Part shown: positions 3,361 to 52,845 of the stretch, piece by piece | How positions within the stretch are numbered: position 1 is the stretch's first letter | Layout of the letters: each line of letters begins with the position of its first letter | Assembly (NCBI GenBank): GCA_026004535.1 | Contig: BPJI01000001.1 | Location: forward strand, 431,424-495,423 | Direction of reading: 5' to 3' | From: Candidatus Parcubacteria bacterium | GTDB lineage: Bacteria; Patescibacteriota; Minisyncoccia; UBA6257; HR35 | DNA length: 64,000 nt | The notes under the pieces: generated by a model | Seen by the model: the letters and a program-made list of their open reading frames with translations, nothing else | What the model was told of the DNA's origin: nothing | Database searches by the model: none | Translations under genes and position numbers: made by a program

Positions 3361-3530
3361 TATTCATTACCCGGATATGGAACGGATAAATTAACTGGAT
3401 GTAAACCGGATGATATTATTAATTATTTTTACTCGGATTTACACCGGATAAACTACCCTGATTATAACCGGATATATCTGGTATTCATCCGGGTAATTAA
3501 TCAGGTATTTAATCCGGGTAATCTATTTAA
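3361..3530. repeat. ccggat-word repeat element (direct block, then inverted atccggg block)
   Basis: About a dozen (a)cccggat / aaccggat words at ~11-13 nt spacing, followed by the reverse-complement words catccgggtaa / aatccgggtaa. Confidence 0.8.
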
Positions 3531-5432
3531 TTATAACTCTTTTTCTTTAATTTCAACAAAAATTTCTAATTCCTCTTTAGTAATTATCTCTTCTTTAATT
3601 TTACCTAAATGTTCTAAGGGCGTAGCGAAAATTTCCTTGATAATTGCTCGAGGATTAATTTTGTTTTTCTTATTAAATTCCATTTGATATTTTCTTCTTC
3701 TTTGGGTTTCCTTTATGGCAGCTTCTAATGATTTGGTTATTTTATCAGCATACAAAATTACTTTACCTTCTAAATGACGAGCACTTCTCCCGATTGCTTG
3801 GATTAATGTTGTTGTATTTCTTAGAAATCCTTCGCGGTCAGCATCTAAGATAGCTACTAAGGAAACTTCAGGCAAATCTAATCCTTCTCTTAGAAGATTA
3901 ACTCCGACCAAAACCTCAATTTCGCCTGTTCTTAATTTTTTTATAATCTCTGCTCTTTTTAAGGTTTTAATATCTGAATGTAAATAGTTCGCTTTAATTC
4001 CCTGCTCTAATAAAAATTCAGTTAAATTTTCGGCTGATCTTTTAGTTAAAGTTAAAACCAAAACTCTTTGATTTTTATCAAGTCTTTCTTTTATCTCTTT
4101 TAATAAATCTAAAACTTGATTTTTAGTTGGTCGCACTTCAATTTCTGGATCTAAAATACCTGTTGGCCTTACTAGTTGTTCAACGATCTGCGAAGAAATT
4201 TTTCTTTCAAAAGGTCCAGGAGTTGCTGAAACAAAAATAATCTGGAAATTTTTATTGAAAAATTCATCAAATGTTAAAGGCCGATTATCGATTGCTGAAG
4301 GTAATCTCCAGCCATATTCAACTAAAATTTCTTTTCTTTTTCGATCACCATTAGCCATTGCTCTTAATTGAGGAATGGCTAAGTGCGATTCATCAATAAA
4401 CAAAATTGTTTCTGATGGTAAATAATCTAATAAAGTATATGGTGGTTCACCTGGATTTCGAAAAGATAAATGCCTTGAATAATTTTCAATTCCAGAACAA
4501 TAACCATATTTTTCTAAAAGATGAATATCTAACAAGGTTCTTTGTTTAATTCTTTCAGCTTCAACAATTCTTCCCTGCTCCAAAAATTGCCAATATCTTT
4601 CTTTTAATTCTTGTTTGATATTTAAGATAGCAATGTCTAATTTTTCTTTGGGGGTGACAAAAAATTTAGCTGGAAAGATTTTAATATATTCTAATTCTTC
4701 ATAATCTCCAGTTATTTCTAATTTAAAAACATCCTCTCTTGATTTTTTGATTGTAAATTTTTTAATTGATTTTATGATTTTGTTTTGCCATTTAATTTCT
4801 AACATATAACTTCCGTCAGGGTTAAAAATGTAAATTCCTGAATTTTCTCGGTCATAAATATATGTTCCTGATCTGATTGTATTCAAACTTCCTTTTTCAT
4901 ATTGTAATGTTTTTAAATAATCAATAACATCTTTAAGGGAAATTTTTTGGCCAACATTTAAATTTAAACAAATATTTTTATATTCTTCAGGATCACCAAT
5001 GCCATAAATACAACTAATTGAGGAGACAATAATAAAATCTTTTCTAGTTAAAACACTTTCAATGGCAGCATGACGAAGTTGATCTAAAAGCTCATTAATT
5101 CTTGCATCTTTAGCAATATAAATATCTGTTTCAGGTAAATAAGCTTCCGGCTGGTAATAATCATAATAACTAACAAAATAATGAACTGCATTTTCAGGAA
5201 AGAAATATTTAAATTCTTGATAAAGTTGAGCCGCCAAAACTTTATTAGGTGAAAGAACCAAAGCAGGCCTTTGAGTTTTATAAATAACATTAGCCATAGA
5301 AAATGTTTTTCCACTGCCAGTCACTCCTAAAAGTGTTTGAAATCTATAATTTTTATTCAATCCGGCAACTAACTTTCTAATTGCTTGAGGCTGATCTCCA
5401 GATGGTTTGTAATCCGAAATCAATTTGAACAT
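3531..5432 (-). CDS. uvrB: excinuclease ABC subunit B
   Basis: 633 aa. Walker A GVTGSGKTF, UvrB helicase motifs and a C-terminal UVR-like helix. Confidence 0.9.
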   Translation of the reverse strand: MFKLISDYKPSGDQPQAIRKLVAGLNKNYRFQTLLGVTGSGKTFSMANVIYKTQRPALVLSPNKVLAAQLYQEFKYFFPENAVHYFVSYYDYYQPEAYLPETDIYIAKDARINELLDQLRHAAIESVLTRKDFIIVSSISCIYGIGDPEEYKNICLNLNVGQKISLKDVIDYLKTLQYEKGSLNTIRSGTYIYDRENSGIYIFNPDGSYMLEIKWQNKIIKSIKKFTIKKSREDVFKLEITGDYEELEYIKIFPAKFFVTPKEKLDIAILNIKQELKERYWQFLEQGRIVEAERIKQRTLLDIHLLEKYGYCSGIENYSRHLSFRNPGEPPYTLLDYLPSETILFIDESHLAIPQLRAMANGDRKRKEILVEYGWRLPSAIDNRPLTFDEFFNKNFQIIFVSATPGPFERKISSQIVEQLVRPTGILDPEIEVRPTKNQVLDLLKEIKERLDKNQRVLVLTLTKRSAENLTEFLLEQGIKANYLHSDIKTLKRAEIIKKLRTGEIEVLVGVNLLREGLDLPEVSLVAILDADREGFLRNTTTLIQAIGRSARHLEGKVILYADKITKSLEAAIKETQRRRKYQMEFNKKNKINPRAIIKEIFATPLEHLGKIKEEIITKEELEIFVEIKEKEL

Positions 5433-5439
5433 GATATAA

Positions 5440-5530
5440 TTATATCACTGACATTGAACTAACAGAACTGACACTGAAACTTACAGAATTAATATAATCT
5501 AAGTTCCATAAGTTCTGCGTTTGTATATTC
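5440..5530. repeat. cagaac/gttctg-word repeat element in the uvrB / phosphohexomutase divergent intergenic region
   Basis: The words aacagaactgacactgaaacttacagaatt are followed by inverted ttccataagttctgcg. Confidence 0.6.
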
Positions 5531-5534
5531 CAAA

Positions 5535-6947
5535 ATGCTCTTAACTGGTTATGATTTAAGAGGTATTTTTAAAAAAGAATTGACTTTTGATGTTATTTAT
5601 CAAGCAACTAAACAGTTTTTTAAGAAATTAAAAATTAGAAAAGCCATTTTGGCTGTTGATGCAAATAGAAATAATTTTTTAATTAAAGATTTCTTAGAAA
5701 GAAATTTCAATCTTGAGTTTATTGGCGTTCTACCAACGCCAATTTTTTATTATAAAGTCATTAAAATAAAAATTCCTGGAATTATGATTACTGCTTCTCA
5801 TTTGCCTTTAAAATATTCGGGGTTGAAATTTATTTTAGAAAATGGCGAACCGTGGAAACCTTATATTAGCGCGTTGCCTTCGGGTCATACCCCCGAAGCC
5901 CACAGCCCTCGGAGTGCTATCGTACGCACCTCTGCCGGAATGACCCTCAGGCAAACGCGCCGGATAATTAATTTACAAAAGCACCAGATAATTAAGGAAT
6001 ATTTTAAAACTTTATTTTCTATCATCAAACCGAAAAAGAAAATTTTTGTTTGTTTTGATAAGAAAAATTTTTTTCTTAATGCTTCCCTACCCTATTTTGA
6101 AAAATTAAAAATTTTTCATCAAGATAATTCTCCAATTAAGATTAAATCTGATTTAGACAATGACAGAATTTTTGTTTATCTTAAAAAAAGAAAAATTCAT
6201 AATGATTTAATTTTTTATTATTTAGCTCTTTTGCCTCAATATAAGAAATTGGCTGTGCCAATATTTTTCAGTCAAAAACTAAGACAAGAACTTATTAAAA
6301 AAGGTAAGAAGATTTATTTTATTCCAACTGGACACTATTATTTCAAAAAAGCATTCAAAAAATATAATTTAGACTTAGGTTTTGAACCAAGTGGTCATTT
6401 TTATATGTTTAAAGATTTAAAAACAGAATCGCCCTATTTGGCCTTAGGTTTATTTTTACATTTATTAGCAGAACTTACGGACCTAACACAGACAGAACGG
6501 ACCAAACAGAGAATAGCCTTGGAGGAAATTTTAAAATTAAATAATTCACTTCAACTTTATCGTTTTGATATTAAGAAAATACAATCAGAAGAAAATGTTG
6601 TCTCTTTTTTGAAGAAGAGATATAAGTTAAAATTAAAAAAGTTTGACGGTTATTTATTATTTCCAAAGGAAAAAACAGAACTTACAAAACTAACACAGAA
6701 TTTAAATAAAAATACTATCGCAGAACTTACTGAACTAACACAGAACTTACAGAAAAATACTACCTCAGAAATTGCAGAACTAACACAGAACTCGCAGAAA
6801 AATTCAGTGAGTTCTGCGTCAGTTCAGCATGGTTCTGCGTTCTACCTGTATTTAAGGAAAAGCAAAACAGAAAATAAATTAAGAGTATCTTTTGAAGGCG
6901 ACAAAAAAATTCTCAAAGAAATAAAACAATGGCTCATGAAGATTTAA
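5535..6947 (+). CDS. phosphoglucomutase/phosphomannomutase-family protein carrying in-frame repeat insertions
   Basis: TASHLP (active-site Ser, SHNP-like) and GFEPSGH (GEESGH-like) phosphohexomutase motifs. Interrupted by a GC-rich ~100-nt insert and by ELTxLTQN repeat blocks. Confidence 0.6.
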   Translation: MLLTGYDLRGIFKKELTFDVIYQATKQFFKKLKIRKAILAVDANRNNFLIKDFLERNFNLEFIGVLPTPIFYYKVIKIKIPGIMITASHLPLKYSGLKFILENGEPWKPYISALPSGHTPEAHSPRSAIVRTSAGMTLRQTRRIINLQKHQIIKEYFKTLFSIIKPKKKIFVCFDKKNFFLNASLPYFEKLKIFHQDNSPIKIKSDLDNDRIFVYLKKRKIHNDLIFYYLALLPQYKKLAVPIFFSQKLRQELIKKGKKIYFIPTGHYYFKKAFKKYNLDLGFEPSGHFYMFKDLKTESPYLALGLFLHLLAELTDLTQTERTKQRIALEEILKLNNSLQLYRFDIKKIQSEENVVSFLKKRYKLKLKKFDGYLLFPKEKTELTKLTQNLNKNTIAELTELTQNLQKNTTSEIAELTQNSQKNSVSSASVQHGSAFYLYLRKSKTENKLRVSFEGDKKILKEIKQWLMKI

Positions 6948-8775: not shown

Positions 8776-8776
8776 T

Positions 8777-8826
8777 TTCAACTAACCGTCTAACACGATA
8801 TAGCATCTTAAACAGTCAAATTAATG
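8777..8826. repeat. left copy of a ~46-50 bp direct repeat flanking the pilin cassette
   Basis: caactaaccgtctaacacgAtatagcaTCttaaacagtcaaatTaat, which matches 10675-10724 at roughly 46 of 50 positions. Confidence 0.75.
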
Positions 8827-8977
8827 TTTACGACGTCGTACGTCGTAAAGTAAATATAACGACGTGCGACGTCCAGATATTGAGAAAATAATATTTAGGA
8901 CATCGCACGTCTTAAATTATTTTCCGTGTCCGATTCCGTTCATTTCGCCTTTAAATTTTAGCACAATTTTCCACATC

Positions 8978-9005
8978 TTGACATCATATTTTTTCTATTT
9001 ATAAT
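8978..9005 (+). promoter_or_regulatory. near-consensus sigma70-type promoter for the pilin gene
   Basis: TTGACA (8978-8983), 16-nt spacer, TATAAT (9000-9005), 7 nt upstream of the ATG at 9012. Confidence 0.5.
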
Positions 9006-9011
9006 TAAATT

Positions 9012-19774: not shown

Positions 19775-19895
19775 TATTAACCGGATAAGTTACCCGGATT
19801 ATAACTGGATATAACTACCCGGCTTTTTACCGAATTCATTATGACAAAATAATCTAGGTGACTATCCGAGTAATCTATCCGGTAAGTTATCCGGG
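19775..19895. repeat. ccggat-word repeat element
   Basis: aaccggataagttacccggatt..., then inverted tatccgagtaa / atccggtaa / atccgggcaa words. Confidence 0.75.
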
Positions 19896-21613: not shown

Positions 21614-23689
21614 TTAACGAATTGTTATTCCATATCTACTTTTTAAATTTTCTTCAATTTTCCGCATTTCTAAGTTAACATCTTCATCAGTTAAACTTCG
21701 TTGGGGGTGGAAAAAAATAAACCTGATTGTCATTGATTTTAAATTTGAAACCTCAGAATTTTGAGGAAAATAAACGTCAATTAATTTTATTTCCTGAAGA
21801 TAATTTATTTTTAATCTCTCAATTTCCATCTTTAATTGACTAAATTTAATTTTTTCATCAATAAAGAATGATAGATCTCTGATAATTTGAGGAAAAATTG
21901 GCCAAGGATGAAAAACTTTTTTCATCACAGATCTTTTTTTTAATGTATTTGTATCTAATTCAATTACACCAACATTTAAATCAATGTCCAGTTCGCTTAA
22001 AATTTTTTTCTTAATTAAACCCAAAATGCCGACATTATCAATTTTTATTCCTGCGGTTAAAAATTCGTTTTTAATTTCTTCTAATTTCAAATTCAAGCAT
22101 AATTCTGAAGCAATAAAATTTAAAACACCCTTTAATTCCTTTAAAATTTCTTCGGGTGTTAATTTACTGGCATAAACGATTCCCAAATGATATTTCTCAA
22201 CCACGGATTCACGCGGATTTAAAACGGATTTGCGCGGATTATATTGAGCCACGGATTCACGCGGATTTACACTGATCTCTTTATAAGCTACTTTACTTAT
22301 TTCAAAAATTTTGATTTCCTTAAAATTAAATTGATTAAGATAAACAGATTTTAATAAATTAGGAATTAAACTCGATTGAAAATATTTATAATTTTCACTA
22401 ATTGGATTTAAAACCTCGACCACGGATTTTCGCGGATTTAAAATATCAACCACGGATTCACGTGGATTTTCTATACGCATAACATCATTTAATCTATATA
22501 ATCCTTGCAGTTCTTTCTCTCCATAAAAACTATAATTATGACCTTCATCATAACCAGCTTTGGTTAATATTTTTCTTAAAAAATTATTAAAAACAATATC
22601 TTCTTCAATGAAAATTTCTCTTAAGGGTGATTCATAAATTGGTTTAATTTTATTTAAATCATATATCCTTATAATTTCTTCAACAATATCTGTTTCCGTT
22701 TGTAAATCTAATCTCTCCAAAGGTACAATTAATTGATCATTTTTAATTTTGATGCCTAATTTTTTAAAAATTTTCAAAATTTCTTTTTTATTAATTTCTA
22801 AACCGGTGATTTTTTTAACTTTGTCAAAATTAAATTTTATTTTAGTCTCCCTTAATTTTTTCTCTCCAAAAATTTTTCTTAAAACATCTCCGCCTAAATT
22901 TCTATTAATTAAATAAGAAACCCTATTTAAGGCTTGCAAAGCTCTTATTGGCGCTACTTTTCTTTCAAAACGAAAACTTGCTTCTGTTTTCAAATTTAAC
23001 TTTCTTGAAGTTTGATAAATTTTAGTCGGGTCAAAAACTGCCGCTTCAATAAAAATATTTTTTGTTTTTAAATCAATTTCTGCTGTTTTGCTTCCTTTAA
23101 TTCCAGCTAAACCTAAAATTTTTTCTTTATCAGCAATAACAATTTCATCACCTTGAAGCTCATATTCTTTCCCCTCTAAAGAAATAAATTTTTCTCCTTT
23201 TTTAGCTAAACGAACATAGATATTGCCTTTAATTTTGTCCAAATCAAAAATATGAAGTGGTGCCCCATATTCAATCATCACAAAATTAGATAAATCAACT
23301 AAAAAGTTAATTGAATTAAAACCGTAAAATTCAACAAATTCTTTTAACCAACCCGGAGAAGGTTTATTTTCAACATTTAAAATTATTCTGCCAAAATAAT
23401 AAGGCGCTAATTTTGAATTAACAATCACTTTGAAGTTTAAACTTTTTGCTTTAGATTGTAGATTGTTAATTTTTAATTCTTTTGAGATTAAATTTTTTAT
23501 TATTGCTACTTCTTTAGCTAAACCAATTAAACTCGCTGCATCAGGATAACGATTAGGCAAAATATCAACCTCTAAAATTCCATCATTATAAACAGTCTCG
23601 AAACTTTTCATTGTCAATTCACTAGCAATTTTTTCCCAGTCTAATTTTTTATTTAAATATTTTTCTAAATCTTTTATTCTAAATTTCAT
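21614..23689 (-). CDS. pheT: phenylalanine--tRNA ligase beta subunit, carrying in-frame cacggat repeat insertions
   Basis: B3/B4, B5 and C-terminal FDX-ACB domains. NPRESVV..NPRKSVV peptide repeats are encoded by cggatt word arrays at 22196-22270 and 22425-22478. Confidence 0.8.
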   Translation of the reverse strand: MKFRIKDLEKYLNKKLDWEKIASELTMKSFETVYNDGILEVDILPNRYPDAASLIGLAKEVAIIKNLISKELKINNLQSKAKSLNFKVIVNSKLAPYYFGRIILNVENKPSPGWLKEFVEFYGFNSINFLVDLSNFVMIEYGAPLHIFDLDKIKGNIYVRLAKKGEKFISLEGKEYELQGDEIVIADKEKILGLAGIKGSKTAEIDLKTKNIFIEAAVFDPTKIYQTSRKLNLKTEASFRFERKVAPIRALQALNRVSYLINRNLGGDVLRKIFGEKKLRETKIKFNFDKVKKITGLEINKKEILKIFKKLGIKIKNDQLIVPLERLDLQTETDIVEEIIRIYDLNKIKPIYESPLREIFIEEDIVFNNFLRKILTKAGYDEGHNYSFYGEKELQGLYRLNDVMRIENPRESVVDILNPRKSVVEVLNPISENYKYFQSSLIPNLLKSVYLNQFNFKEIKIFEISKVAYKEISVNPRESVAQYNPRKSVLNPRESVVEKYHLGIVYASKLTPEEILKELKGVLNFIASELCLNLKLEEIKNEFLTAGIKIDNVGILGLIKKKILSELDIDLNVGVIELDTNTLKKRSVMKKVFHPWPIFPQIIRDLSFFIDEKIKFSQLKMEIERLKINYLQEIKLIDVYFPQNSEVSNLKSMTIRFIFFHPQRSLTDEDVNLEMRKIEENLKSRYGITIR

Positions 23690-23700: not shown

Positions 23701-23800
23701 ACCCGGATAACCAACCGGATTATTTTACCCGGATGATTACCGGATAAATCCGGTTTATATCCAGGTAGTATTATCCGGTTAATATCCGGGTAAAAATATT
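23701..23800. repeat. ccggat-word repeat element
   Basis: acccggataaccaaccggatt..., then atccaggta / atccggtta / atccgggtaa. Confidence 0.75.
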
Positions 23801-26634: not shown

Positions 26635-26640
26635 ATTTAA

Positions 26641-26780
26641 AATACTACCCGGATGATTACCTGATAAAAATATCTACCTGGATAAATACCGGATTATTTT
26701 ACCCGAATGCTTACCAGATAAATCCGGTTTGAATCCGGGTAACTATATCCGGCTAATATCAGGGTAACTAGTTTCTTTAT
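26641..26780. repeat. ccggat-word repeat element
   Basis: tacccggatgattacctgataaaa..., then atccggtt / atccgggtaa words. Confidence 0.75.
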
Positions 26781-27152
26781 CTATTTAATACCCGGCGATG
26801 ACACAATCAACACCCAACTTTTTTTAACTAAATCTGCTTCTTCTAAAATGGGGTCAATAACTCTTGAAACCTTGGCACAGTCTTCGATATTTACTCCTCC
26901 TTCTTTATCAATTTTAATTATTAAAGCAAATCTACCATTTTCACTACCGAATTGAATATCAAACAATTTATAACCCATATCCTCGATTACTTCTTCAATC
27001 AATTCTCTGACTTTTTCTTTTAGGTCCATTAGATAAGCCCGCTGACAGCTGAAGAAAATTTTTTCAGGGCGATGATAGCTGCGACATTTATCATATACAG
27101 CCGACAGCTGCTGAAATTTTTCAACCGCGGGCAGCTGCAGATATATATTCAT
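26781..27152 (-). CDS. rimP: ribosome maturation factor RimP, N-domain only; the ORF's first ~40 codons are a cagctgc repeat element
   Basis: MDLKEKVRELIEEVIEDMGYKLFDIQF...VLIVSSPGI matches the RimP N-terminal domain. The upstream in-frame extension (27030-27152) lies inside the cagctgc array. The usual C-terminal domain is absent. Confidence 0.55.
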   Translation of the reverse strand: MNIYLQLPAVEKFQQLSAVYDKCRSYHRPEKIFFSCQRAYLMDLKEKVRELIEEVIEDMGYKLFDIQFGSENGRFALIIKIDKEGGVNIEDCAKVSRVIDPILEEADLVKKSWVLIVSSPGIK

Positions 27153-27535
27153 TAGGCAGACAGCAGCGGAAAATCTTAAAACGCAGACAGCTGCGGAAAT
27201 GCTTTAACTACCCGGATGGTCTATCGGATATAATTACCCGGATAGCTTATCGGATAATGTTTATCCAGATGAATACCGGATTATTTTATCCGGATGATTA
27301 CCGGATATTTATCTAACCGGATAACTTACCGGATATAGTTACCCGGATAAACTAACGGATATAATTACCCGGATTAATAACCGGATAAAAATACTCTATA
27401 TATCATCCGGTCTATATCCGGGTAGTTCTATCCGGTTCATAGCCGGGTAGTATTATACGATTATAATCCGGGCAGAAAATATTTTCAGCTGCTGTCTGCG
27501 GTAAATACTCTGACCACTGCTGTCCATATTAATAA
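27040..27535. repeat. composite repeat hotspot: cagctgc block, ccggat direct+inverted block, ctgctgtc block
   Basis: 27040-27200 holds gacagctg / cagctgc words. 27205-27480 holds ccggat and atccgg words. 27481-27535 holds cagctgctgtctgcg. Confidence 0.8.
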
Positions 27536-32164: not shown

Positions 32165-33142
32165 TTAAAAAGTTTCAAAATAAGAAAATCTATTTTTTGC
32201 TTTTCGCCAAATAATTTCTATTTTTTCAACCTTAGCTAATATTGGTCCTCGTTTTATTTTTTCTAAAAATTCTTGTAAATTCTTTTCTTTACCTTGAGCT
32301 AAAACCTCAATACTGCCATCTGTTAAATTTTTAGCATAACCAAAAATTCCTAAATTTTGTGCCCAATTACGGCAAAATAATCTAAAACCAACTCTCTGTA
32401 CTCTGCCATAAACTTTGACGTAAAATTCTAAATAATCTTTCTCTATATCTTCAAAACTTAATGCTTCTTCCAAGGTAAATTCATTTATTTTAGTTCTAAC
32501 TAAAGATTTTAAATAAGCACCACAACCTAATTTTTGACCAATATCATGAGCTAAACTTCTAATATAAGTTCCTGATGAAACTTCAACTTCAATTTTAAGG
32601 ATCTTTTCTTTTAAATCTAAAATTTTAATATTATAAATTTTTACTTTTCTTGGTTTTAAATCAACCTTTAAGCCTTTCCTTGCTAATTTATATGCTCTTT
32701 TGCCTTTTATTTTTATAGCTGAATAAGGTGGAGGAATTTGTTCTATCTCGCCAATAAAACCTGCTAATATTTTTTCTATCTCTGATATATTTAGGTTCGT
32801 ATCAGTTCGCGTTAAGCCATGAACCAGAGCAGAGCTCGGTTCATGGTCCTGAACCCTTCGTGGTTCAGGATTCGCATCGGTTCGCACTATGTTTCCGGTT
32901 ATATCATAAGTATCAGAGATAGCACCTAATTCAATTTCAGCAATATAAGTTTTTCTACTTTCTTTTAAAAATTTTGTTAGTTCTTTTGTATAGTCATCAA
33001 TTCCCAAAATTAAAAGTCCTTCAGCAAAAGGATCTAATGTTCCTCCATGCCCAACTTTTTTCTTAGTTAATTTTTTAAAATAATTAACAATCTGAACAGA
33101 AGTATAATTTTGGGGTTTATTAAACAGAACTAATCCTTCCAT
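32165..33142 (-). CDS. truB: tRNA pseudouridine(55) synthase TruB fused to a C-terminal acylphosphatase-like domain; contains an in-frame ggttc-word insert
   Basis: N-terminal TruB (HGGTLDPFAEGLLILGI). C-terminal VYGRVQRVGFR ... GYAKNLTDGSIEVLAQG acylphosphatase signatures. GC-rich insert at 32795-32905. Confidence 0.7.
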   Translation of the reverse strand: MEGLVLFNKPQNYTSVQIVNYFKKLTKKKVGHGGTLDPFAEGLLILGIDDYTKELTKFLKESRKTYIAEIELGAISDTYDITGNIVRTDANPEPRRVQDHEPSSALVHGLTRTDTNLNISEIEKILAGFIGEIEQIPPPYSAIKIKGKRAYKLARKGLKVDLKPRKVKIYNIKILDLKEKILKIEVEVSSGTYIRSLAHDIGQKLGCGAYLKSLVRTKINEFTLEEALSFEDIEKDYLEFYVKVYGRVQRVGFRLFCRNWAQNLGIFGYAKNLTDGSIEVLAQGKEKNLQEFLEKIKRGPILAKVEKIEIIWRKAKNRFSYFETF

Positions 33143-34720: not shown

Positions 34721-37501
34721 TTAATATTTCATTTGCAACCTTATTTTTCTATTAATTTTTGCTTTTTCTAAAATAACATTCTTTGTTTTTTCAAATCGCT
34801 TAAAGTTTTCTTGGTTCAAAAATTCTTCAAGTTCTTTTTCCTCAACAAAAGCACCGATATAAGGAATTGTTGATTTTAATATTTTAATTAAAACAAAATC
34901 ACTTTTACCTGGCCCACCACCTTTTTCTTCTAATTTTTGCCAATTTTCTTTTAACCAATTAAAAGTGAATTTTGCTGCATTTGAATTTAAAGAAACTGAA
35001 TTGAAAAAGAAAATAGTCTGATTAAATCTAACTTGTGAAGAAAGAATAAATTCAAAAATAGAACTTAACTTTTCTAAATTTTGTAAATTACCAAAAGCAA
35101 TTAAACATTTATTTTGTTCTTCAATCAAATTAGTCTGATGATAATAATTCAAAAGTTTTTCTAAATAGTTATCATTAGCAATTAAAGCATTATTAAAGAT
35201 TGCTTGTTTAATATCAGGATGAAGTTTTTCTTTGTCTTTTAAAAATTCTTCAAATTTTTCTTGGCTGAAATCTAAAATCTCTTTATTCTTCAAAATTCCC
35301 AAAGAAAATAGAGTTTTTTGCCTTAAAACTGTTTCATAAGGTTGTTCACCTTCCCTCGGCTCTTTTCCTAAAATATCCAAAACTTTTAAAGAAAATTTTT
35401 CTAATAAAGCGGAAAGGTCAGAAACGGACGCGGAACGAACGGAATAAGCGGAACTGGTTTTTCCGTCTGTTCCATTTTTTCCGTGTCCGTTTCCGTCTGT
35501 TCTGCTTTGATCTGTATCAATTCTGCGCAGTTCCGCGTTTAGTCTGCGTTGGTCTACGTCTATCCTGCGTTGGTCTGCGTTTAGTAAATAATAATAAAAA
35601 TTTAAATAAGAAATAATTTCACTAAAAACAAAGGGTTTAGAATTATTGATAAAATATTTTTCTAAAATTTCTAAAAAGTTTTCAAAATTTTTCTCACCCT
35701 TTCTAACTAACATATCATAATCATGAACTAAATGAACCTGATCAATTTCATTTAATTTTTCTAAATTCTCTAAATTTCTTTTTAGAATTTCTTCATCATA
35801 ATCACTAACAAAAAAACTTGAATAGTTTTTATTAAGAATAAAAGTTGAAAAATTAGATTCAGGAATTGGGGCGATTTCTTCTTTTTCTTTTAATATTTTT
35901 CTTTCTTCTTTATTATCAATTTCAATCACAAAAGGAATTTTCCAATAATCTTCTCTGTCTTCTAAAAATAAGAATCTCCTTTGTCTTAAACAGTATCTGC
36001 CTTGCTCTTTTTTAAAACTTACCAAAGGATAGCCAACTTTTTCAATATAATCTTTCATAATCTCAACCACTGGCACACTCGAAACTTCTTCTAAGCATTG
36101 CCACAAATCTTCTGCTTTAGCATTTTGATAAGTAAATTTTTTAATATACAGCCTCAATCCTTCTCTAAATTTTTCTTCACCTAAATAATTCTCAATCATC
36201 CTTAAAACACTGCCACCTTTTTCATAAGATATCTCATCAAAAATTTCAACTGACTCATTTGGATCTTTAACCTCAACTTTAATCGGGTGAGAAGCAATCA
36301 AACCATCAGCATTCAAAGCACTAAAAACTTCATCCAAAACATATTTTTCTAAAATTCTCCAATTAGGATAAAAATTATTAACAGCTTTATAAGCTAAATA
36401 AGTGGCAAAGCTTTCATTTAACCATAAATCGTCCCACCACTTCATTGTTACTAAATTACCAAACCACATATGAACTAATTCATGAGCAATAACTTCAGCA
36501 ATTCTTTCTTGGGTAGATTTTGGTGTTATGCCTTCGAAAACTAAAAGTAAATTCTCGCGAAAAGTAATTGCTCCCCAATTTTCCATTGCTCCAGCAGCAA
36601 AATCAGGAACAGCGATTAGATCTAATTTTTTTAAGGGATAAGGGGAATCAAAATATTCTTCTAAATAATTTAAAAATTTTTTAGCATTTTCTAAAGCAAA
36701 TCTTACTCCTTCTAATTTTTCCTTTGGCGTAACTGCCACTCGAATAATAACTTCTTTATATTTATCTTCAACAAAATACCAATCACCAATTCCAATATAC
36801 AAAAGATAAGTTGACATCTTGGGAGTTGTTTCAAAAATCACTTTTTTCTTTTCATTAACAATTTCTTCTTTAATTGGCAAAGTATTGGAAATTGCTTTTA
36901 ATTCTTTAGGAAAAATTAAAGTTAAATCAAACGTTGCTTTTTTATCTGGGTCATCAAAACAAGGAAAAGCTTTGCGTGCTTCAATTGGTTCAAATTGAGT
37001 TGTGATTAAACATTTTTCTTGTTCTTTGTCTTTATATTTACTTAAATAAATTCCTCCTAAAACCTCTTTTAATTCTCCTTCAAAATCAATAAAAATAGTA
37101 TTATCTTTTTCAGAAAAATTATTTTTAATCAAAATTCCATCTTTTTGAACTTCAAAATCTACATCTTGGTCATTCACTTTTAGCTGATTAATTTTTAAAT
37201 CAACAGCATCAATTTTTAGAAAATTACCCCGATGATCACCTGATAGATTACCCGGATAATTGTCTGGCATATTACCCGGATAATCACTGGATAAATCCGG
37301 TTCATATTCGGGTAGTATTATCCGGTTAATATCCGGGTGGTTCCATCCGGTTTGAATCCGGGTAGCTGTATCTGGTTTTAATCCGGGTAAACTAATTCTT
37401 ATCTCTTCTCTGCCTCGATAAATATTCTTCTCTAAATCAAAGTCTAATTCAATTTTATAATTTCTAACTTCCATTATTTTTCCTTGATAAATTTTCAACA
37501 A
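34721..37501 (-). CDS. pepN: aminopeptidase N (M1 family) with in-frame repeat insertions
   Basis: GAMENWG exopeptidase motif and HELVHMWFGNLVT...WLNESFA zinc motif. The acggaa/ctgcg element at 35395-35580 and the ccggat element at 37228-37392 sit inside the ORF. Confidence 0.85.
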   Translation of the reverse strand: MLKIYQGKIMEVRNYKIELDFDLEKNIYRGREEIRISLPGLKPDTATRIQTGWNHPDINRIILPEYEPDLSSDYPGNMPDNYPGNLSGDHRGNFLKIDAVDLKINQLKVNDQDVDFEVQKDGILIKNNFSEKDNTIFIDFEGELKEVLGGIYLSKYKDKEQEKCLITTQFEPIEARKAFPCFDDPDKKATFDLTLIFPKELKAISNTLPIKEEIVNEKKKVIFETTPKMSTYLLYIGIGDWYFVEDKYKEVIIRVAVTPKEKLEGVRFALENAKKFLNYLEEYFDSPYPLKKLDLIAVPDFAAGAMENWGAITFRENLLLVFEGITPKSTQERIAEVIAHELVHMWFGNLVTMKWWDDLWLNESFATYLAYKAVNNFYPNWRILEKYVLDEVFSALNADGLIASHPIKVEVKDPNESVEIFDEISYEKGGSVLRMIENYLGEEKFREGLRLYIKKFTYQNAKAEDLWQCLEEVSSVPVVEIMKDYIEKVGYPLVSFKKEQGRYCLRQRRFLFLEDREDYWKIPFVIEIDNKEERKILKEKEEIAPIPESNFSTFILNKNYSSFFVSDYDEEILKRNLENLEKLNEIDQVHLVHDYDMLVRKGEKNFENFLEILEKYFINNSKPFVFSEIISYLNFYYYLLNADQRRIDVDQRRLNAELRRIDTDQSRTDGNGHGKNGTDGKTSSAYSVRSASVSDLSALLEKFSLKVLDILGKEPREGEQPYETVLRQKTLFSLGILKNKEILDFSQEKFEEFLKDKEKLHPDIKQAIFNNALIANDNYLEKLLNYYHQTNLIEEQNKCLIAFGNLQNLEKLSSIFEFILSSQVRFNQTIFFFNSVSLNSNAAKFTFNWLKENWQKLEEKGGGPGKSDFVLIKILKSTIPYIGAFVEEKELEEFLNQENFKRFEKTKNVILEKAKINRKIRLQMKY

Positions 37502-39840: not shown

Positions 39841-39990
39841 ATTTTTACCCAGATTATAACCAGATAATACTACCCGGATATTAACCGGATATAACTACTC
39901 GGATTCAAACCGGATACAAATACCCGGATATAAACCGGTATTCATCCGGGTAATCTATCCGGTATTAATCCGGGCATATTAATAAAATCT
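39841..39990. repeat. ccggat-word repeat element
   Basis: taacccagat / aaccagat / acccggat words, then catccgggtaa / atccggtatt / aatccgggca words. Confidence 0.8.
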
Positions 39991-42293: not shown

Positions 42294-42307
42294 TTCCTAA
42301 ATTTCGT

Positions 42308-44340: not shown

Positions 44341-44435
44341 TAATTTAATTATACTATGTTTTAATATTATTTAAAATATAAAAATCATTAATTTTTAAAG
44401 TTTTTTCCACAACATTTTATAATTTTATTAATCGA

Positions 44436-45161: not shown

Positions 45162-45308
45162 TTAACATAAAATTCCTAATCCCAAAATCAAAACTTTTTT
45201 ATTTTTTAAATTTATCATCTTAATTTTTTATAAAAATATATTATTCAATATCTATTCCCCAATCCTACAAACTGGATTAATTCTTCACTGCTACGTAGCA
45301 ATAGACTT

Positions 45309-45818: not shown

Positions 45819-45914
45819 TTTTAAAACATGAAATCTAAATAATATAAAATATCTAAATTTTATGTAAAAATAACCAAATTAAATATAACACAAAATAAAC
45901 AAAAAAACCAAAAT

Positions 45915-45956
45915 GGTCAATTTTTCTATTGCTACGTAGCAATAGAAAAATTGACC
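45915..45956. promoter_or_regulatory. perfect 42-nt palindrome (candidate operator or terminator) upstream of the yerC-like gene
   Basis: ggtcaatttttctattgctacgtagcaatagaaaaattgacc equals its own reverse complement. Its core TGCTACGTAGCAATAG recurs at 45289-45304 and 10592-10607. Confidence 0.6.
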
Positions 45957-46009
45957 AAATTAGGGATAATTAAAGATGAGTTTTTGATTTATAATTTAAT
46001 TAAACACAA

Positions 46010-46691
46010 ATGAAAATTTATATTGGTACTTCAGGTTGGCAATATTGGCATTGGAGATGAAAATTTTACCCAGAAAATTCAACTTCTAAAGATTTTTTAA
46101 AATTTTATTCAAAACATTTCAATACTGTTGAAATTAATACAAGTTTTTATCATTTAACAAAAAAGACAACATTATCGTCTTTTTACTCATTTTAGAAGAT
46201 TAAAATTAAATAAAGAAGATAAAAAATTACTATTAGAAACTATCCAAATTTATAAAGTTTTAAAAGAAAAATTAGGACCAATTTTAATTCAACTTCCTCC
46301 AGGATTAAAATATGATTTAAAATTATTCAAATCATTTATAAATGTTATTAAAAAATTTAAAAAAGTAAAATTTGCTATTGAATTTCGTCATAAAACTTGG
46401 CTAAATAAAAAAATTTATACTCTATTAAAAAAATACAAAATAGCGTTCGTAATATCTGATTCACCAAGATGGCCAACTGATTTTGTTAAAACAACTGATG
46501 TGATTTATGTTAGATTTCATGGCAAACCAATTCTTTTTGCTTCAAAATACTCAAAAGAAGAATTAAAAGAATATGCTGAAAGAATTAAAAAACTAAAACC
46601 AAAAATTTTATTTGCTTATTTTAACAATGATGCTGAAGGTTATGCTATTGACAATGCTTTAGAATTTAAAAATTTATTTAATTTATCATAA
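46010..46691 (+). pseudogene. DUF72 (UPF0759) family gene, disrupted
   Basis: MKIYIGTSGWQYWHWR, then an in-frame TGA at 46058-46060, then KFYPE... A frame switch near 46180 and a missing mid-section follow. The C-terminal part (ending ...YVRFHGKPILFASKYSKEEL...AYFNNDAEGYAIDNA) is intact in another frame. Confidence 0.6.
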
Positions 46692-47449: not shown

Positions 47450-47454
47450 ATATC

Positions 47455-47512
47455 TTAGTATAGTCTGCGTAGTTCTGCGTTAGTTCTGCATAAGTCTGCG
47501 GTTTATTTTAGA
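47455..47512. repeat. ctgcg-word repeat element
   Basis: tagtctgcgtagttctgcgttagttctgcataagtctgcgg. Confidence 0.6.
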
Positions 47513-48027: not shown

Positions 48028-48059
48028 TGTATTTAACTAGAACTAACATAAGAGATTAA

Positions 48060-48116
48060 ATAATTTATTGATTTCTGTAGGTTCTGTATTAGTTCTGTTA
48101 GTTCTGTGTGTTTAAT
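48060..48116. repeat. gttctgt-word repeat element
   Basis: ttctgtaggttctgtattagttctgttagttctgtgtg. Confidence 0.6.
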
Positions 48117-49614
48117 TTTTAACAACGACCTTTTTAATAATTGACCCTTGTTTAGTATCTTCAATTTTATAACCAGCTTCCAATACTTCTTCTCTAATTT
48201 TATCAGCTTCCTGCCACTTCCCTTCTTTTCTTAATCTTTCTCTTAATAAAACTTTCTTTTTAATTTCAGCTGGTAATTTTTGTTTTGCTAAAAATTCTTT
48301 GAATCCTAACCCCAAAATTTTATCAGCCTCTAAAACAAAAATTTTTTTAAATTTTAAATCTTCATCTGACTTTAAAATTTCCCATAATTTAGCAATTAAT
48401 CGAGGAGTATCAAGATCATAATTAACAATATTTAATATTTCTTTAAAAGCAGAATTATGCAGAACTAAATCAGAACTACCCAGAGCCGAGACTCGCTTGT
48501 CGCCAAATAGTGATTTATACAAATTAATAGAAAGATTAAAGCTGGAGATCGTCTCTAAAAGTAAGTTATATGCATTTTGAGCTGATTCCATTGCTTGCCA
48601 AGTAAAATTCATTTCTGAACGATAATGTGAGGTTAAAACTAAATATCTAAAAGCAAGCGGTTGAAAACCTTTTTTCTCAATATCTTCTAAAGTAATAATA
48701 TTTCCTAAACTTTTCGCCATTTTCTCTCCCTCAACTTTTAAAAAATTTACATGAAGCCAATAATTAACAAATTTTTTACCAGTTGCTGCTTCTGATTGAG
48801 CAATTTCATTAGTATGATGAATATCAATGTGATCAATACCGCCAGTATGAATATCGATTGTTTTACCTAAATATTTCATTGACATTGCTGAACATTCAAT
48901 ATGCCAACCAGGAAAACCAATGCCCCAAGGACTTCTCCATTCCATTTGTCTTTTCACATCTTTAGGTGAAAATTTCCATAGAGCAAAATCATACGGATTT
49001 CTTTTTTCAGGATTTATCTCAACTCTCGCGCCAGCTAATAATTTTTTCCTTTTAATTTGGGCCAATATACCATAATTTTTAAACTTAGAAGTGTCAAAAT
49101 AAATGCCATCTGAAATTTTGTAAGTATAGCCCTTTTTTTCTAAAATCTTTATAAGCTCAATCATTTCTTTTATATGCTGAGTTGCTCGAGGAAACTTAAA
49201 AGGAGTTTTGATATTTAATTTTTTAATATCTTCCTTGAAAATTTTTTCAAAATAACGTGCAATTTCCCAAGCAGTTTTTCTTTTTTCTCTGGCACTTTTT
49301 TCAATTTTATCTTCACCAGTATCAGCATCAGAGGTTAAATGTCCAACATCAGTAATGTTAATAATTTGTTTTACTTTATAGCCATTATACTCAAGTGTTC
49401 TTCTTAAGGTATCGGCAAAAATATAAGCTCTTAAATTACCAATATGAGGTCTTTCATAAACAGTTGGCCCACAATTATACATCGTTACTATCTTATCTTT
49501 CAAAGGTTTAAATTTTTCTTTTCTTCGAGTTAAGGTATTAAATAGATAAAGAGGCTCCATTAATTTAATTATAATTCGGTAATATCTCTTGGTAAAAATA
49601 AATTCAAAATCCAA
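48112..49614 (-). CDS. cysS: cysteine--tRNA ligase
   Basis: HIGNLRAY (HIGH motif) and KMAKSLGN (KMSKS motif). Confidence 0.9.
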
Positions 49615-51002
49615 TCAATAAATGTTTTAACTTGATCTCGAAAAGAAATCATTTTGCTTAAATAAACTCCTTTCCAAATAAACCAACTAATTAAACCAGA
49701 AAATTCAATTCCTTTAATTTCACCTAAGGCATAAAACCTACCAACTGAAATCAAATCGCCAGCATGTTTATAAATAAATTTCTGCAATGGTTTATTTTCA
49801 ATTAAATTTTTAATATTTAAAGCAACTAATTTTGCTTGTCTAACTGCAACTTGAGCTAATTGTGGTAATGGTTTTTGATCTTGAATAAAACAACAAACAT
49901 CACCAATTGCAAAAACATTATCATATACAGAACTACTCAGAACTGATGCAGGACTGACTGAATTATCTTTGGTTGCAGAACTATACTGAACTGACACTGA
50001 ACTAACAGAATTATTCTGTGAGTTCTGTATTGGTTCTGTATGTTCTGCATTATTCTGCAAATTCTGTGTAAGTTCAGCTCTTTCTGCGTCTATTTTCTTT
50101 TTCACCTGCAAATATTCATTTAAAACTAGTCTTCCTTTATTATCTTTTTCAACGTTACCAATAATTTCTGGTAAATTTGGTTCAACTCCTGCTGTCCAAA
50201 TAACTGTTTTTGTTTCAATAACATTACCGTCATCAAGTTTAATAAAATCTTCACCAACCTCAATTACTCCTTTTTCTAGTCTAACATCAACTTTTAATTT
50301 TTTTAACCTTTCAAGTGCTTTTTGTCTTAATTTTGGAGAAAATTGAGGAATTAATTCTTTGCCTTTTTCGATTAGAATTATTTTAACTTGTGAAATTAAA
50401 TCTGATGAATATAATTTACTAAATGTTTTATAAAACAAATCACTCATTTCACCAGCCAATTCAACTCCTGTTGCTCCACCTCCAACAATGACAAAAGTGA
50501 GATATTTATTTACCTTTTCTGGATATAAACTTCCTATTTCAAACATATGAACAAATCTATTTTTCAATCTTATAGCGTCATCAATTGTTTTTAAGGAAAA
50601 ACTATATTCTTTAGCCCCAGGAATATTGTAATAATTTGTTTTCGAACCTAAGGCAATAACTAGATAATCATAATTAACATTATAATCTTCTCTTTCTTTA
50701 TTTATGTAAACAATTTTGTTCTCTAAATCAATTTTTTCAACTTCTCCATGAACAAAATCAAAATCACAACATCTAATAATTTCTCTTATGGGTTCTAGGG
50801 CATTATCAATCGAAACTCCGCCAGTAGCAACTTCATGAAGTAAAGGCGTAAAAATAAAATAATTCTTTTTATTCACCAATACTAATTTTACTTTCTTATT
50901 ATGAAAAAGTTTATGTAAATGTTTTAAAGCATAAACACCACCAAATCCTCCACCTAAGATTACTATCTTCATTAAATAATCGGAAATAACGGAAACAAAC
51001 AC
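49569..51002 (-). CDS. ndh: type II NADH dehydrogenase / pyridine nucleotide-disulfide oxidoreductase with an in-frame cagaac/gttctg repeat insertion
   Basis: [12 protein letters not shown] motif and a second Rossmann motif [11 protein letters not shown]. The insert at 49925-50100 encodes [34 protein letters not shown]... Confidence 0.75.
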
Positions 51003-51110
51003 GGAATGAGCGGAAGAAACGGAAAAAACTCCGTTAATTCCGATAGTCAGCTTCTTCCGTGTTATGTCGTTCTTTCCGTTAATTCCGTGTTAAGTTCCGC
51101 AAGTTCTGTT
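50980..51110. repeat. acggaa-word repeat element (direct block, then inverted ttccgt block)
   Basis: aatcggaaataacggaaacaaacacggaatgagcggaagaaacggaaaa, then ctccgttaattccg...ttccgtg...ttccgtt...ttccgtg. Confidence 0.8.
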
Positions 51111-51113
51111 AAT

Positions 51114-51512
51114 TTAGAACAAACTAAGACTGAATGGCCAAGGCTGAGGAACAAAGAGTAAGGCTAAAACTCCTGCCCAGATAGCCATATTCTTCATGAA
51201 ATTAATCATTTCCATCATTTTCACTTGTGGATCTTGGACCGTCCAAAAATTATGAATCATAAATGTAACAGGCAAAAAGAAAAGCGTTAGAGCTAAAACT
51301 CCGACTTGAATATAAGCACCAAATAAAATTGAAAATCCACCAATTAAAAGTAAAAGACCTGTAACAATGACAGACAATTTAGGAGCTGGTACATTTTTAG
51401 TTTGAGCATACTGAGACATCATATTCAGATTTTTAAAATGATTAAAACCACTAAACAAAAAATAAAAACCCAAAATTACTCTTGAAAGTAGCAGAATGTA
51501 ATCTGAAATCAT
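51114..51512 (-). CDS. DoxX-like small membrane protein
   Basis: 132 aa with 4 TM helices. Confidence 0.45.
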   Translation of the reverse strand: MISDYILLLSRVILGFYFLFSGFNHFKNLNMMSQYAQTKNVPAPKLSVIVTGLLLLIGGFSILFGAYIQVGVLALTLFFLPVTFMIHNFWTVQDPQVKMMEMINFMKNMAIWAGVLALLFVPQPWPFSLSLF

Positions 51513-51540
51513 CTTTTTTAATTTTTTTAATTCGACCTAA

Positions 51541-52845
51541 TTAAATTTTAGCACAAATTTCTAATAATCTATTATATTTTACTACTCTTTCACCTTGTAA
51601 AGGAACACCGATTTTAAAATAATCTGCACCAAAAGCAATTCCTAAATCAATTAGCCAATTATCATTTGTTTCGCCACTACGATGTGAAAAAATAGTAAAT
51701 AAATTATTTTCTTTGGCTAATTTAACAAAATTAAATGTTTCAGTTATGGTGCCGATTTGATTAGGTTTGACAATTACACCATCAACAGAATTTTTCTCTA
51801 AAGCAATTTTTAATCTTTCAATATTGGTCACTGTTAAATCATCGCCAATTACTTTAAATCCTTCTTTACGAAGTTCAGCAAATTTTTCAAATTCATTTTC
51901 TTTATATGGATCTTCTAAATATTTAACACCCAAAATTTTTAATTTTCGATAAACATTCTTCCAATTAACTATATTTGTTATTTGATTAGCAGCAATATCA
52001 GCTCCAAGCTCAAAATAAAAATTATTACCCGGATGATTACCGGATAAATCCGGTTTATATCCGGGTAAATTATCCGTATCCGGTTTAAATCCGGGCAACT
52101 TATCCGGTTGTAATCCGGGTAAATTATCCGGTTCATATCCGGATAAATTACTAGTTACTTCTTTTAAATATAAAAAAGGTTCATAATTATCACTAAAGTT
52201 TGTACAAAATGCTCCTTCATCGTTTCTTCCTAATGGTTTAGGCAATTTTTTTTCAATCTGATTAATAATACTAATGATCTTAGCGATTAAAAGTTCAAAA
52301 TATGCAGCATTGAAAGAATTTTTCCGTAAGTTCTGCGTCAGTTCCGTGTAGTGCTGTGTTATTAACCAATATTCCTGAAAATCTAAATTATTAAAAGAAT
52401 GCACTCCTCCACCAATAATATTTAAAATTAATCTTAGCATTCGTGTAGACTCGTCCTTATTTATTCGTGTAGATTCGTTTTTTAAATATTCAAACAACTC
52501 CAAATTTTTACTTTTAGCTAGAGCTCGAGCAAAACTGATTGAAACTCCTAAAGTAAAATTACCTCCTAATTTTTCTTTATTCTTCCCTGCTCTTTCAATT
52601 AAAAATTCATCTAATTCATTAAGATTTTGAAAATCTTTATTTTTTATATCTTTCAAAAATTCGCTTAAATTCTTTTTAATTTTTTCACAATCTAAACAAA
52701 CAACCTCATGAGAACCGATACTTTTCCCAGAAGGAATTGACGCTTTTTCTTTTATTCCTTCACTTTCAATCTCAACCTCGATTGTCCATTCTCCTCTTGA
52801 GTCTAAAATTTTATTTACTTTTATATCATTTATTTTCATCTTCAA
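51541..52845 (-). CDS. eno: enolase (phosphopyruvate hydratase) carrying three in-frame repeat-element insertions
   Basis: ILDSRGEWTIEVEI N-terminus, NDEGAF, YLEDP, IGDDLTVTN, KPNQIG, SHRSGETND and KYNRLLEI catalytic motifs. Inserts at 52024-52150 (ccggat), 52325-52360 (cagaac/ctgcg) and 52436-52480 (cgtgtagac). Confidence 0.85.
   Translation of the reverse strand: MKMKINDIKVNKILDSRGEWTIEVEIESEGIKEKASIPSGKSIGSHEVVCLDCEKIKKNLSEFLKDIKNKDFQNLNELDEFLIERAGKNKEKLGGNFTLGVSISFARALAKSKNLELFEYLKNESTRINKDESTRMLRLILNIIGGGVHSFNNLDFQEYWLITQHYTELTQNLRKNSFNAAYFELLIAKIISIINQIEKKLPKPLGRNDEGAFCTNFSDNYEPFLYLKEVTSNLSGYEPDNLPGLQPDKLPGFKPDTDNLPGYKPDLSGNHPGNNFYFELGADIAANQITNIVNWKNVYRKLKILGVKYLEDPYKENEFEKFAELRKEGFKVIGDDLTVTNIERLKIALEKNSVDGVIVKPNQIGTITETFNFVKLAKENNLFTIFSHRSGETNDNWLIDLGIAFGADYFKIGVPLQGERVVKYNRLLEICAKI

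Follow-up and report, generated by a model that had tools for sequence, protein, structure and literature searches.

The 64,000-nucleotide (nt) stretch of DNA analysed here, hereafter called the window, originates from KatS3mg096, a ~557-kb (556,583 nt) hot-spring genome of the Patescibacteria (candidate phyla radiation, CPR), and carries many arrays in which copies of a short word are followed by copies of its reverse complement. In relatives, the same arms bracket a gene of the GxxExxY family, and arms built of word arrays characterise this family as a whole, flanking its genes across many phyla. The arrays are thus probably selfish inverted-repeat elements, the window copies being nuclease-less derivatives of GxxExxY cassettes, similar to MITEs (miniature transposable elements with inverted repeats), rather than the free-standing new class of element proposed in an earlier note on this DNA. 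The complete form is a ~0.5-kb cassette in which two arms surround a gene for a ~125-amino-acid (aa) GxxExxY (PF13366/TIGR04256) nuclease of the PD-(D/E)XK type; in the window versions the arms abut directly, with no open reading frame (ORF) between them.

Each arm consists of 3-13 copies of a purine-rich word of 5-9 nt with a C-N-R-A-type core, the second arm being the reverse complement of the first, and the words fall into the CCGGAT, CACGGAT, CGGAA, CAGAAC, GCAGAC and CGAAT families. The elements measure 93-330 nt and occur in multiple copies; they start with TACCCGGAT and finish with ATCCGGGTA, their complementary arms representing terminal inverted repeats. The window has a G+C content of ~28%, with ~89% of its length under ORFs of at least 80 aa, and its host genes were named by NCBIfam and Pfam matches. 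Its enolase and aminopeptidase N (pepN) show 100% identity to KatS3mg096 proteins. The closest relatives are two Katase hot-spring metagenome-assembled genomes (MAGs), L001 (GCA_026004495.1) and L002 (GCA_026004515.1), bacterium HR35 (L005), and hot-spring contigs from the Joint Genome Institute; the L002 and window enolases share 70% protein identity. The repeats are not mentioned in the paper on the Katase MAGs.

GxxExxY cassettes in relatives and across phyla

In L001, the type-II NADH dehydrogenase gene (ndh) contains, in frame, a direct GCAGAC array made of ACGCAGAC words, then a 125-aa GxxExxY ORF, and then an inverted GTCTGC array. The enolase gene (eno) of L003 shows the same succession with the word family of the window, namely CTACCCGGATATAAACCGGAT... 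with its TACCCGGAT/AACCGGAT words, a GxxExxY ORF, and ...CCATCCGGTAATCATCCGGGCAAT with ATCCGG words. Other enolase homologues display this arm-ORF-arm layout with other words, and the Pfam listing places PF13366 in many enolase homologues. Two enolases, one with the ORF (P0029) and one without it (P0014), can be compared at one and the same site, where they have a left-arm peptide in common and near-identical flanks. The in-frame ORFs of the relatives scored 103 and 121 bits against TIGR04256 ('GxxExxY protein'; cut-off 35), which was their only match, and they keep both the D...ExK residues of PD-(D/E)XK nucleases, with D68, E78 and K80 invariant, and the G, E and Y residues. The fold of the nuclease ORF is closest to Cas4 and restriction enzymes, and a sequence search of the PDB with the nuclease matched no solved structure. 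The sole functional statement that we found in the literature gives the function of PDDEXK_3 as 'unknown' (PMC3424549).

A scan of one genome per species yielded 80 GxxExxY loci, distributed over Patescibacteria, Chloroflexota, Planctomycetota, Bacteroidota, Acidobacteriota and others. For the 77 genomic loci, the 250 nt on the upstream side were aligned with the reverse-complemented 250 nt on the downstream side; most scores were 35-89, as compared with 16-25 for the direct-orientation control. A 5-mer present at least three times upstream, with its complement at least three times downstream, was found at 24 of the 77 loci and at none of 138 displaced controls. The arm words were CGAAT (21), CTAAT (11), CGGAT (6) and CAAAT (4), which in the 5' arm follow the pattern C-N-R-A-T; a Chloroflexota MAG, for example, has CGCGAATGAAGCGAATGGGCGAATGAGGCGAATGGA together with the exact complement of this sequence, and a Bacteroidetes MAG has CATCGAATAACGAATATTACGAATAACGAATCTG. 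Many of the free-standing cassettes have perfect, evidently young arms of 35-58 nt. Six loci are in-frame insertions within larger ORFs, and a further three are fusions at the C-terminus, the partner being a recJ-like ORF in two cases. Judging from the flanks, the hosts of in-frame cassettes include gatB (two loci), valS and a transketolase-like gene, and a further cassette lies in frame in an asnB-like gene, all in other CPR lineages.

An exhaustive hidden Markov model search of 1.84 billion protein-cluster representatives (50% identity clusters) returned 28,553 GxxExxY clusters at E <= 1e-3, several of the top 150 matches being internal fusions of 369-906 aa. These fusions were missed by a word-indexed protein search with the nuclease domain, which retrieved free-standing proteins only. 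Many of the top representatives (among P0204-P0351) are tandem two-domain proteins of ~260-275 aa, which suggests adjacent or nested cassettes that are read through. Viral contigs, taken as a negative control, contained only distant GxxExxY relatives (27-38% identity) devoid of flanking arrays, and provided no vector.

Word arrays in the window

CCGGAT and its complement ATCCGG occur 90 times in the window, as against ~6.6 expected from base composition, and the 8-mer TACCCGGA occurs 21 times, as against 0.2. We also applied a scan that is agnostic of the word, retaining any 6-mer with at least three G/C that recurs on either strand in at least four copies at steps of no more than 60 nt. This gave 18 strong arrays, located between 3371 and 52145, while 20 order-3 Markov simulations of the window gave 0-1 (mean ~0.1). 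Lowering the cut-off to at least three copies raised the number to 27 loci, versus 3-8 (mean ~6) in the simulations, so that the figure of at least 25 loci given in the earlier note was roughly right. Most arrays are two-armed, and in every one of these the word block precedes the complement block; the opposite order was not encountered once. The elements are as follows, with strand given for the copies inside genes and z denoting the fold score relative to dinucleotide shuffles:

3355-3522, intergenic hairpin of the CCGGAT family, in which direct TACCCGGAT/AACCGGAT words precede ATCCGG(G)TA words; z -3.3
6676-6838 (+), hairpin of the CAGAAC family lying in frame within the phosphohexomutase gene (5535-6947), with the peptide ...ELTQN...SVSSASV; z -5.4
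10332-10527, one-armed intergenic array of ATCCGGGTA-type words, in complement orientation only; z -1.6, not above chance
12295-12625, intergenic CCGGAT hairpin following the ABC-3 permease gene, the largest of its family, with 13 words in direct and 5 in inverted orientation; z -7.9
16378-16634, CACGGAT-family hairpin between rmuC and the glyceraldehyde-3-phosphate dehydrogenase (GAPDH) gene; z -8.2
18256-18360, intergenic ACGGAA-family hairpin; z -6.5
19862-19894, three CTATCCGG-type words forming a small, weak intergenic array with one arm
22204-22267 (-), in-frame pheT array of CGGAT words, one-armed, giving NPRESV repeats in the reading frame
22404-22469 (-), second one-armed CGGAT array in frame in pheT
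23703-23795, CCGGAT hairpin between pheT and pheS, with the tip ACCGGATAAATCCGGT common to the copies in pepN, in eno and at 26680; z -6.5
26639-26794, intergenic CCGGAT hairpin; z -3.4
27030-27525, nested composite upstream of the NUDIX ORF; z -9.9
32794-32883 (-), in-frame truB insert, a core element of two small hairpins with GCGAAC/CGAAT words on its flanks; z -4.2
35406-35581 (-), CGGAA-family hairpin (35406-35510) beside a direct ACGCAGAC array (35520-35581), in frame in pepN; z -6.8
37249-37389 (-), CCGGAT hairpin that interrupts the N-terminal domain of pepN in frame; z -7.0
39846-39974, intergenic CCGGAT hairpin; z -4.5
47464-47500, small one-armed intergenic (G)TCTGCG array, weak
48081-48107, small one-armed GTTCTG array upstream of cysS, weak
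49928-50066 (-), CAGAAC-family hairpin in frame in ndh; z -6.7
50973-51116, ACGGAA-family hairpin in the DoxX-ndh spacer; z -6.2
52028-52145 (-), CCGGAT hairpin in frame in eno (insertion site 3), in a predicted disordered loop; z -5.8
52327-52359 (-), short direct words of the CAGAAC type at site 2 of eno, in frame, read as TQHYTELTQNL
52438-52479 (-), two CTACACGAAT words in frame in eno (site 1), read as ESTRI...ESTRM

Summed over this list, the arrays amount to ~3.0 kb, or ~4.7% of the window. Of the 24 intergenic gaps that reach 100 nt, 12 contain an array, as do 7 of the 13 that reach 200 nt; the statement that nearly every longer intergenic region is occupied was therefore overstated. 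Adjoining the largest CCGGAT hairpin is an ORF of 812 aa (12976-15414) with weak matches to TraD/VirD4-like coupling proteins.

All two-armed elements fold better than their dinucleotide shuffles (z -3.3 to -9.9; 0 +/- 1.2 in 40 control windows). Some arrays, by contrast, have a single arm (10332-10527, both pheT arrays and eno site 1) and fold no better than chance, contrary to the hairpin potential ascribed to each element in the earlier note. Rfam at gathering thresholds detected two tRNAs in the window and returned no match for the arrays. The CCGGAT-family unit is 25 nt long (TTACCCGGAT-n4-ACCGGATA-n4/5) and is kept in the window and in related metagenome contigs. Unit lengths that are multiples of 3, as had been described, apply to eno (21/24/30 nt), and do not apply to pepN (25 nt) or to the intergenic copies (25-27 nt). 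Nor is helical phasing at ~11-13 nt a general property, since words are spaced alternately by 11 and 14 nt in the CCGGAT family and by 8-11 nt in the cassettes of other phyla.

Two other repeats occur in the window. A perfect 44-nt palindrome, TGGTCAATTTTTCTATTGCTAC|GTAGCAATAGAAAAATTGACCA (45914-45957), is found among A-rich tandem repeats in the largest non-coding AT-rich gap of the window (45819-46639, 821 nt); it has no relationship with the word arrays, and may act as an operator, a terminator or an origin-like site. Another family of small palindromic repeats, TTACGACGTC(R)TACGTCGTAA, is present at 8825-8875 and 10535-10560, and pairs of TTAACGACATCWGATGTCGTTAA were seen in relatives (L088 9558-9642, L089 1077-1161, L096 6474-6559). 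This family is REP- (repetitive extragenic palindrome) or terminator-like and distinct from the word arrays.

Copies inside genes and copying between loci

Eight in-frame, stop-free arrays are present in the phosphohexomutase gene, pheT, truB, pepN, ndh and eno, to which the two short eno sites are to be added; the in-frame copies claimed for these six genes were thus all seen, whereas the one assigned to the NUDIX gene turned out to be the 27030-27525 composite, which lies upstream of that ORF; as for the rimP insert, no rimP gene was identified, no check aimed at it having been made. The consistent peptide readings that had been claimed also hold, CAGAAC giving ELTQN and its complement SVSSASV, and CCGGAT giving LPGYKPD and its complement SGNHPGN; this consistency follows from the symmetry of the element. 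All genic copies are open in the host frame. Of the intergenic copies, the five that exceed 190 nt are interrupted by stops in each of the six frames, whereas an open frame persists in some of the shorter ones. The genic copies therefore appear to be a selected subset, which argues, at the level of sequence, that they are translated.

Alignment of 14 enolases revealed three insertion sites, and at these same sites other enolases bear inserts of differing length and word family, including, in relatives, a GxxExxY nuclease cassette at site 1. None of the inserts is present in the HR35 enolase (369 aa) or in other short orthologues. In pepN there are likewise three insert sites. The CCGGAT insert of the window, which follows a conserved N-terminus of 29 aa, is found in 0 of 10 aligned orthologues, most pepN orthologues being ~815 aa long; the other two sites, one of which is the 35406-35581 site, hold varied inserts in various relatives, several of them nested. 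Overall, homologues range from 369 to 659 aa for enolase and from 807 to 957 aa for pepN. Related inserts occupy the ndh site (49928-50066) in L001 and L002, and the DoxX-ndh spacer carries hairpins of different words in the window, L001 and L002; HR35 is devoid of ndh, and its corresponding DoxX-cysS spacer shows no array. The eno and pepN alignments thus bear out the suggestion that the inserts are lineage-specific. In an AlphaFold model the eno inserts are coil with a predicted local distance difference test (pLDDT) score of 27-50, between well-modelled secondary-structure elements, and the inserts are accordingly predicted to be disordered loops at recurrent permissive sites.

Three further observations concern these host genes. 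In the eno gene of L002, a direct CGAAT array at site 1 (10362-10464) and an inverted ATTCG array at site 3 (10805-10882) lie ~450 nt apart, with conserved enolase sequence and a CAGAAC hairpin between them, which looks like a split arm pair around host coding sequence. The truB ORF (32165-33142, minus strand) ends in a C-terminal acylphosphatase domain (residues ~240-325), an unusual fusion. Homologues close to the enolase and pepN of this lineage (P0042, P0046, P0384, P0459) occur in MAGs labelled Aenigmatarchaeota, a sign either of mis-binning or of genes passed horizontally between CPR bacteria and DPANN archaea.

Several pairs of copies are too similar for local slippage alone to account for them, and indicate that the elements spread by copying across loci, genes and genomes. 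The distal part of the largest CCGGAT hairpin (12470-12598) is 91-95% identical to 27327-27455 on the minus strand over 111-130 nt, spacers and loop included. Four copies have the centre ...TTACCCGGATGATTACCGGAT-AA-ATCCGGTTTATATCCGGGTA... in common, namely those in pepN and eno and the two intergenic ones at 23703 and 26680. The truB insert has ~96% DNA identity with an insert in another gene of another genome, the N-terminus of ndh in L002; this core (32794-32883; L002 16655-16740) comprises the hairpins TGAACC-ACGAAG-GGTTCA and CCATGAACC-n11-GGTTCATGG amid direct GCGAAC/CGAAT words, and has no Rfam match. The 25-nt CCGGAT unit recurs in 11 hot-spring metagenome contigs with CCGGAT arrays, from which the GxxExxY ORF is absent, so that nuclease-less copies predominate. 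Identical loci were recovered from independent samples or assemblies (L003 and L004; L005 and L006).

CCGGAT hairpins are also nested in the loops of other hairpins, both in pepN homologues and in the 27030-27525 composite, where outer arms of GACAGCTGC words (~27040-27205 and 27475-27520) enclose a CCGGAT hairpin (27205-27472) in their loop. Hairpin loops appear to be favoured targets. Being hairpin-forming, in frame and lineage-specific, with near-identical copies in different genes and genomes, the elements fit the reading as selfish DNA, and the analogy with Rickettsia palindromic elements (RPEs), that had been put forward for them.

Origin of the elements and comparison with known systems

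More tentatively, and short of a firm conclusion, we propose that GxxExxY genes supply the enzyme for autonomous mobile cassettes with inverted C-N-R-A-T arrays as ends, a class that would so far have gone unrecognised, and that in Patescibacteria these cassettes and their nuclease-less hairpins colonise essential genes in frame, like non-splicing 'inteins', creating lineage-specific disordered loops in core enzymes. Searches of the literature on GxxExxY/PF13366, on palindromic in-frame elements and on CPR insertions, subscription journals lying outside their reach, found no description of these elements, consistent with their having been called undescribed.

The nuclease may recognise the repeated words, or the fold-back or cruciform that they form, by analogy with the multi-copy subterminal sites of transposons, and could mobilise the cassette that encodes it as well as, in trans, copies devoid of a nuclease. 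It would do so by cut-and-paste or copy transposition, or by double-strand-break repair (homing) into the loops of existing hairpins. In a gene-dense genome of 557 kb, the insertions expected to survive are those into short spacers, into loops of older elements, which would give rise to the nesting, and into protein surface loops. Within proteins, only stop-free in-frame copies would persist, translated as disordered hydrophilic linkers.

A number of observations weigh against deriving the window copies from such cassettes. By tblastn, the 64-kb window contains no GxxExxY gene, all of its copies being nuclease-less, and the one-armed arrays are unexplained by a simple MITE model. Inspection of element borders disclosed, as the only possible target-site duplication, a TA that itself belongs to the repeat unit. 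Orthologous spots have different word families in different relatives, which could mean in-situ turnover and not repeated insertion. Mean identity of the nucleases was 0.432 for same-word pairs versus 0.415 for different-word pairs (p ~0.03), and GxxExxY proteins that are 97% identical have either CGAAT or CAAAT as the dominant word; with so weak an association and such counter-examples, word-specific co-evolution is not established. Lastly, the relationship might run in the other direction, the nuclease gene being a secondary invader of pre-existing hairpins.

This last scenario, in which the hairpins are independent, GxxExxY is a homing-endonuclease-like gene targeting their loops, and the short elements are empty homing sites, strikes us as unlikely but deserving of attention. 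Both the nuclease ORF and the nested hairpins lie exactly in loops, the arms of the short elements abut with no remnant of an ORF (tip ACCGGAT-AA-ATCCGGT), nuclease-less copies far outnumber nuclease-bearing ones in the CCGGAT family, and the P0029/P0014 pair fits insertion as well as deletion. However, C-N-R-A-T words flank GxxExxY from Chloroflexota to Bacteroidota to CPR, which one unit explains more easily, and the perfect young arms of so many free-standing cassettes point the same way. We hold it improbable that the elements serve the host as terminators, mRNA stabilisers or nucleoid-protein sites, as do REP and bacterial interspersed mosaic elements (BIMEs). The presence of an array in one half of all intergenic gaps with a length of 100 nt or more, stable stems, and a 25-nt unit conserved across related genomes would suit such a role, but the in-frame copies in six housekeeping genes are missing from close orthologues, orthologous spacers have different words or none, the spacing of the words is non-uniform, and Rfam gives no match. 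Moreover, sense-strand mismatches bear no RNA-structure signature, G.U (29) not exceeding A.C (44), which favours a constraint at the DNA rather than the RNA level. Structural or phased binding-site arrays, the other possibility raised in the earlier note, likewise cannot explain in-frame copies that vary among close relatives.

An origin in place, by replication slippage and fold-back synthesis with no transfer between loci, is very improbable in our judgement. It would accommodate word families that vary by site, different words at orthologous sites, variable copy number and the existence of one-armed arrays, but leaves unexplained the 91-96% identity over 67-111 nt, including spacers and loop, between unlinked loci, different genes and different genomes, as well as the tie of the arrays to one gene family across phyla. 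We attach practically no weight to an assembly or chimera artefact, or to ancient protein features of all orthologues, for which no supporting evidence was found: the artefact is refuted by the identical loci in independent samples and assemblies, with reading frames kept and the insert-bearing pepN protein of KatS3mg096 annotated by NCBI, and the ancient feature by the insert-free orthologues already described (HR35 enolase; most pepN). Other known structures were also discarded. The arrays are not of the CRISPR type (clusters of short palindromic repeats with regular interspacing), as they are made of 5-9 nt words placed 8-15 nt apart and then an inverted block, and not of 23-50 nt repeats with unique spacers. 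An rRNA intervening sequence with an ORF was rejected because rRNA was detected by Rfam neither in the window nor at 20 cassette loci, and iterons or an origin of replication were considered and rejected.

Should the derivation from mobile GxxExxY cassettes be correct, it would provide the first functional context for a very large family whose annotation does not go beyond 'GxxExxY protein', enlarge the known range of prokaryotic mobile DNA by an element that is based on PD-(D/E)XK and has word arrays as ends, and explain length variation of core enzymes in ultra-small CPR bacteria. About 5% of this 64-kb stretch of a streamlined 557-kb genome would then be selfish hairpin DNA. From a practical point of view, the inserts interfere with gene calling and domain annotation in CPR genomes, and with phylogenies of these genomes that are built from alignments.

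We class the elements among the non-autonomous palindromic mobile elements. RPEs, which are in-frame palindromic inserts (Ogata et al. 2000), resemble them as short dispersed hairpin repeats of a reduced genome, intergenic or in frame in housekeeping genes, that are tolerated as surface insertions. An RPE, however, has a fixed consensus of ~100-150 bp, whereas the arms described here are arrays of short words, and the host phylum differs (here Parcubacteria). We know of no enzyme-bearing full-length form of RPEs, whereas relatives of the present bacterium carry a nuclease ORF between the same arms. The relationship of MITEs to their parent insertion sequence offers another parallel, in that small non-coding derivatives keep the inverted ends of a larger enzyme-coding element, outnumber the coding form, and can sit in ORFs; Coxiella MITEs insert in frame (PMC5896051). 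Unlike such parents, the candidate parent here would, by its sequence, encode a ~125-aa PD-(D/E)XK GxxExxY protein and not a DDE, HUH or serine transposase, its ends are multi-copy word arrays, and there is no clear target-site duplication. In REP/BIME systems with a REP-associated tyrosine transposase (RAYT), or REPtrons (for REP classes, PMC3733652), one small enzyme gene similarly lies between inverted repeats and many intergenic clusters lack the enzyme. Yet a REP is a palindrome of 20-40 nt with a GTAG/CGTC head, in contrast to non-palindromic words of 5-9 nt with a 25-nt period. Here, the hairpin forms between whole arrays, copies enter coding sequence, and the bracketed gene is TIGR04256, RAYT being an HUH Y1 transposase.

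As with homing endonucleases and inteins, a nuclease ORF lies in frame at recurrent housekeeping sites (eno, ndh, gatB, valS) and its presence varies. Nevertheless, the Pfam listing of nuclease-bearing enolases shows no Hint domain, only enolase domains and PF13366, although the same source flags true inteins in the neighbouring phosphoenolpyruvate (PEP) synthase of relatives; the flanking arms here are also in reading frame, and many target sites are used. The PEP synthase intein, of LAGLIDADG type, is present in L002 (6130-10014) and L005 (6328-10014), with total lengths of 1294 and 1228 aa, and missing from the window copy (52826-55198, 790 aa) and from L001 (797 aa); it constitutes a second, classical mobile insert, polymorphic in this gene neighbourhood. 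The ends of Ac/Ds (AAACGG hexamers), En/Spm, Mu and Tn7 contain multi-copy words to which binding of the transposase has been demonstrated. Such subterminal arrays share with our elements the copies of a short word in one orientation at one end and inverted at the other, but word binding is only inferred for the latter, whose arms make up nearly the whole short element. The coding palindromes of Nematomorpha mitochondria (PMC6649704) also are long inverted repeats in protein genes with both arms translated; they differ in being organellar, near-perfect and not composed of word arrays, and no associated nuclease cassette has been reported for them. In its behaviour, the element described here is closest to RPEs and to MITE/REP systems, with a flavour of homing endonucleases, and it departs from each of them in defining features.

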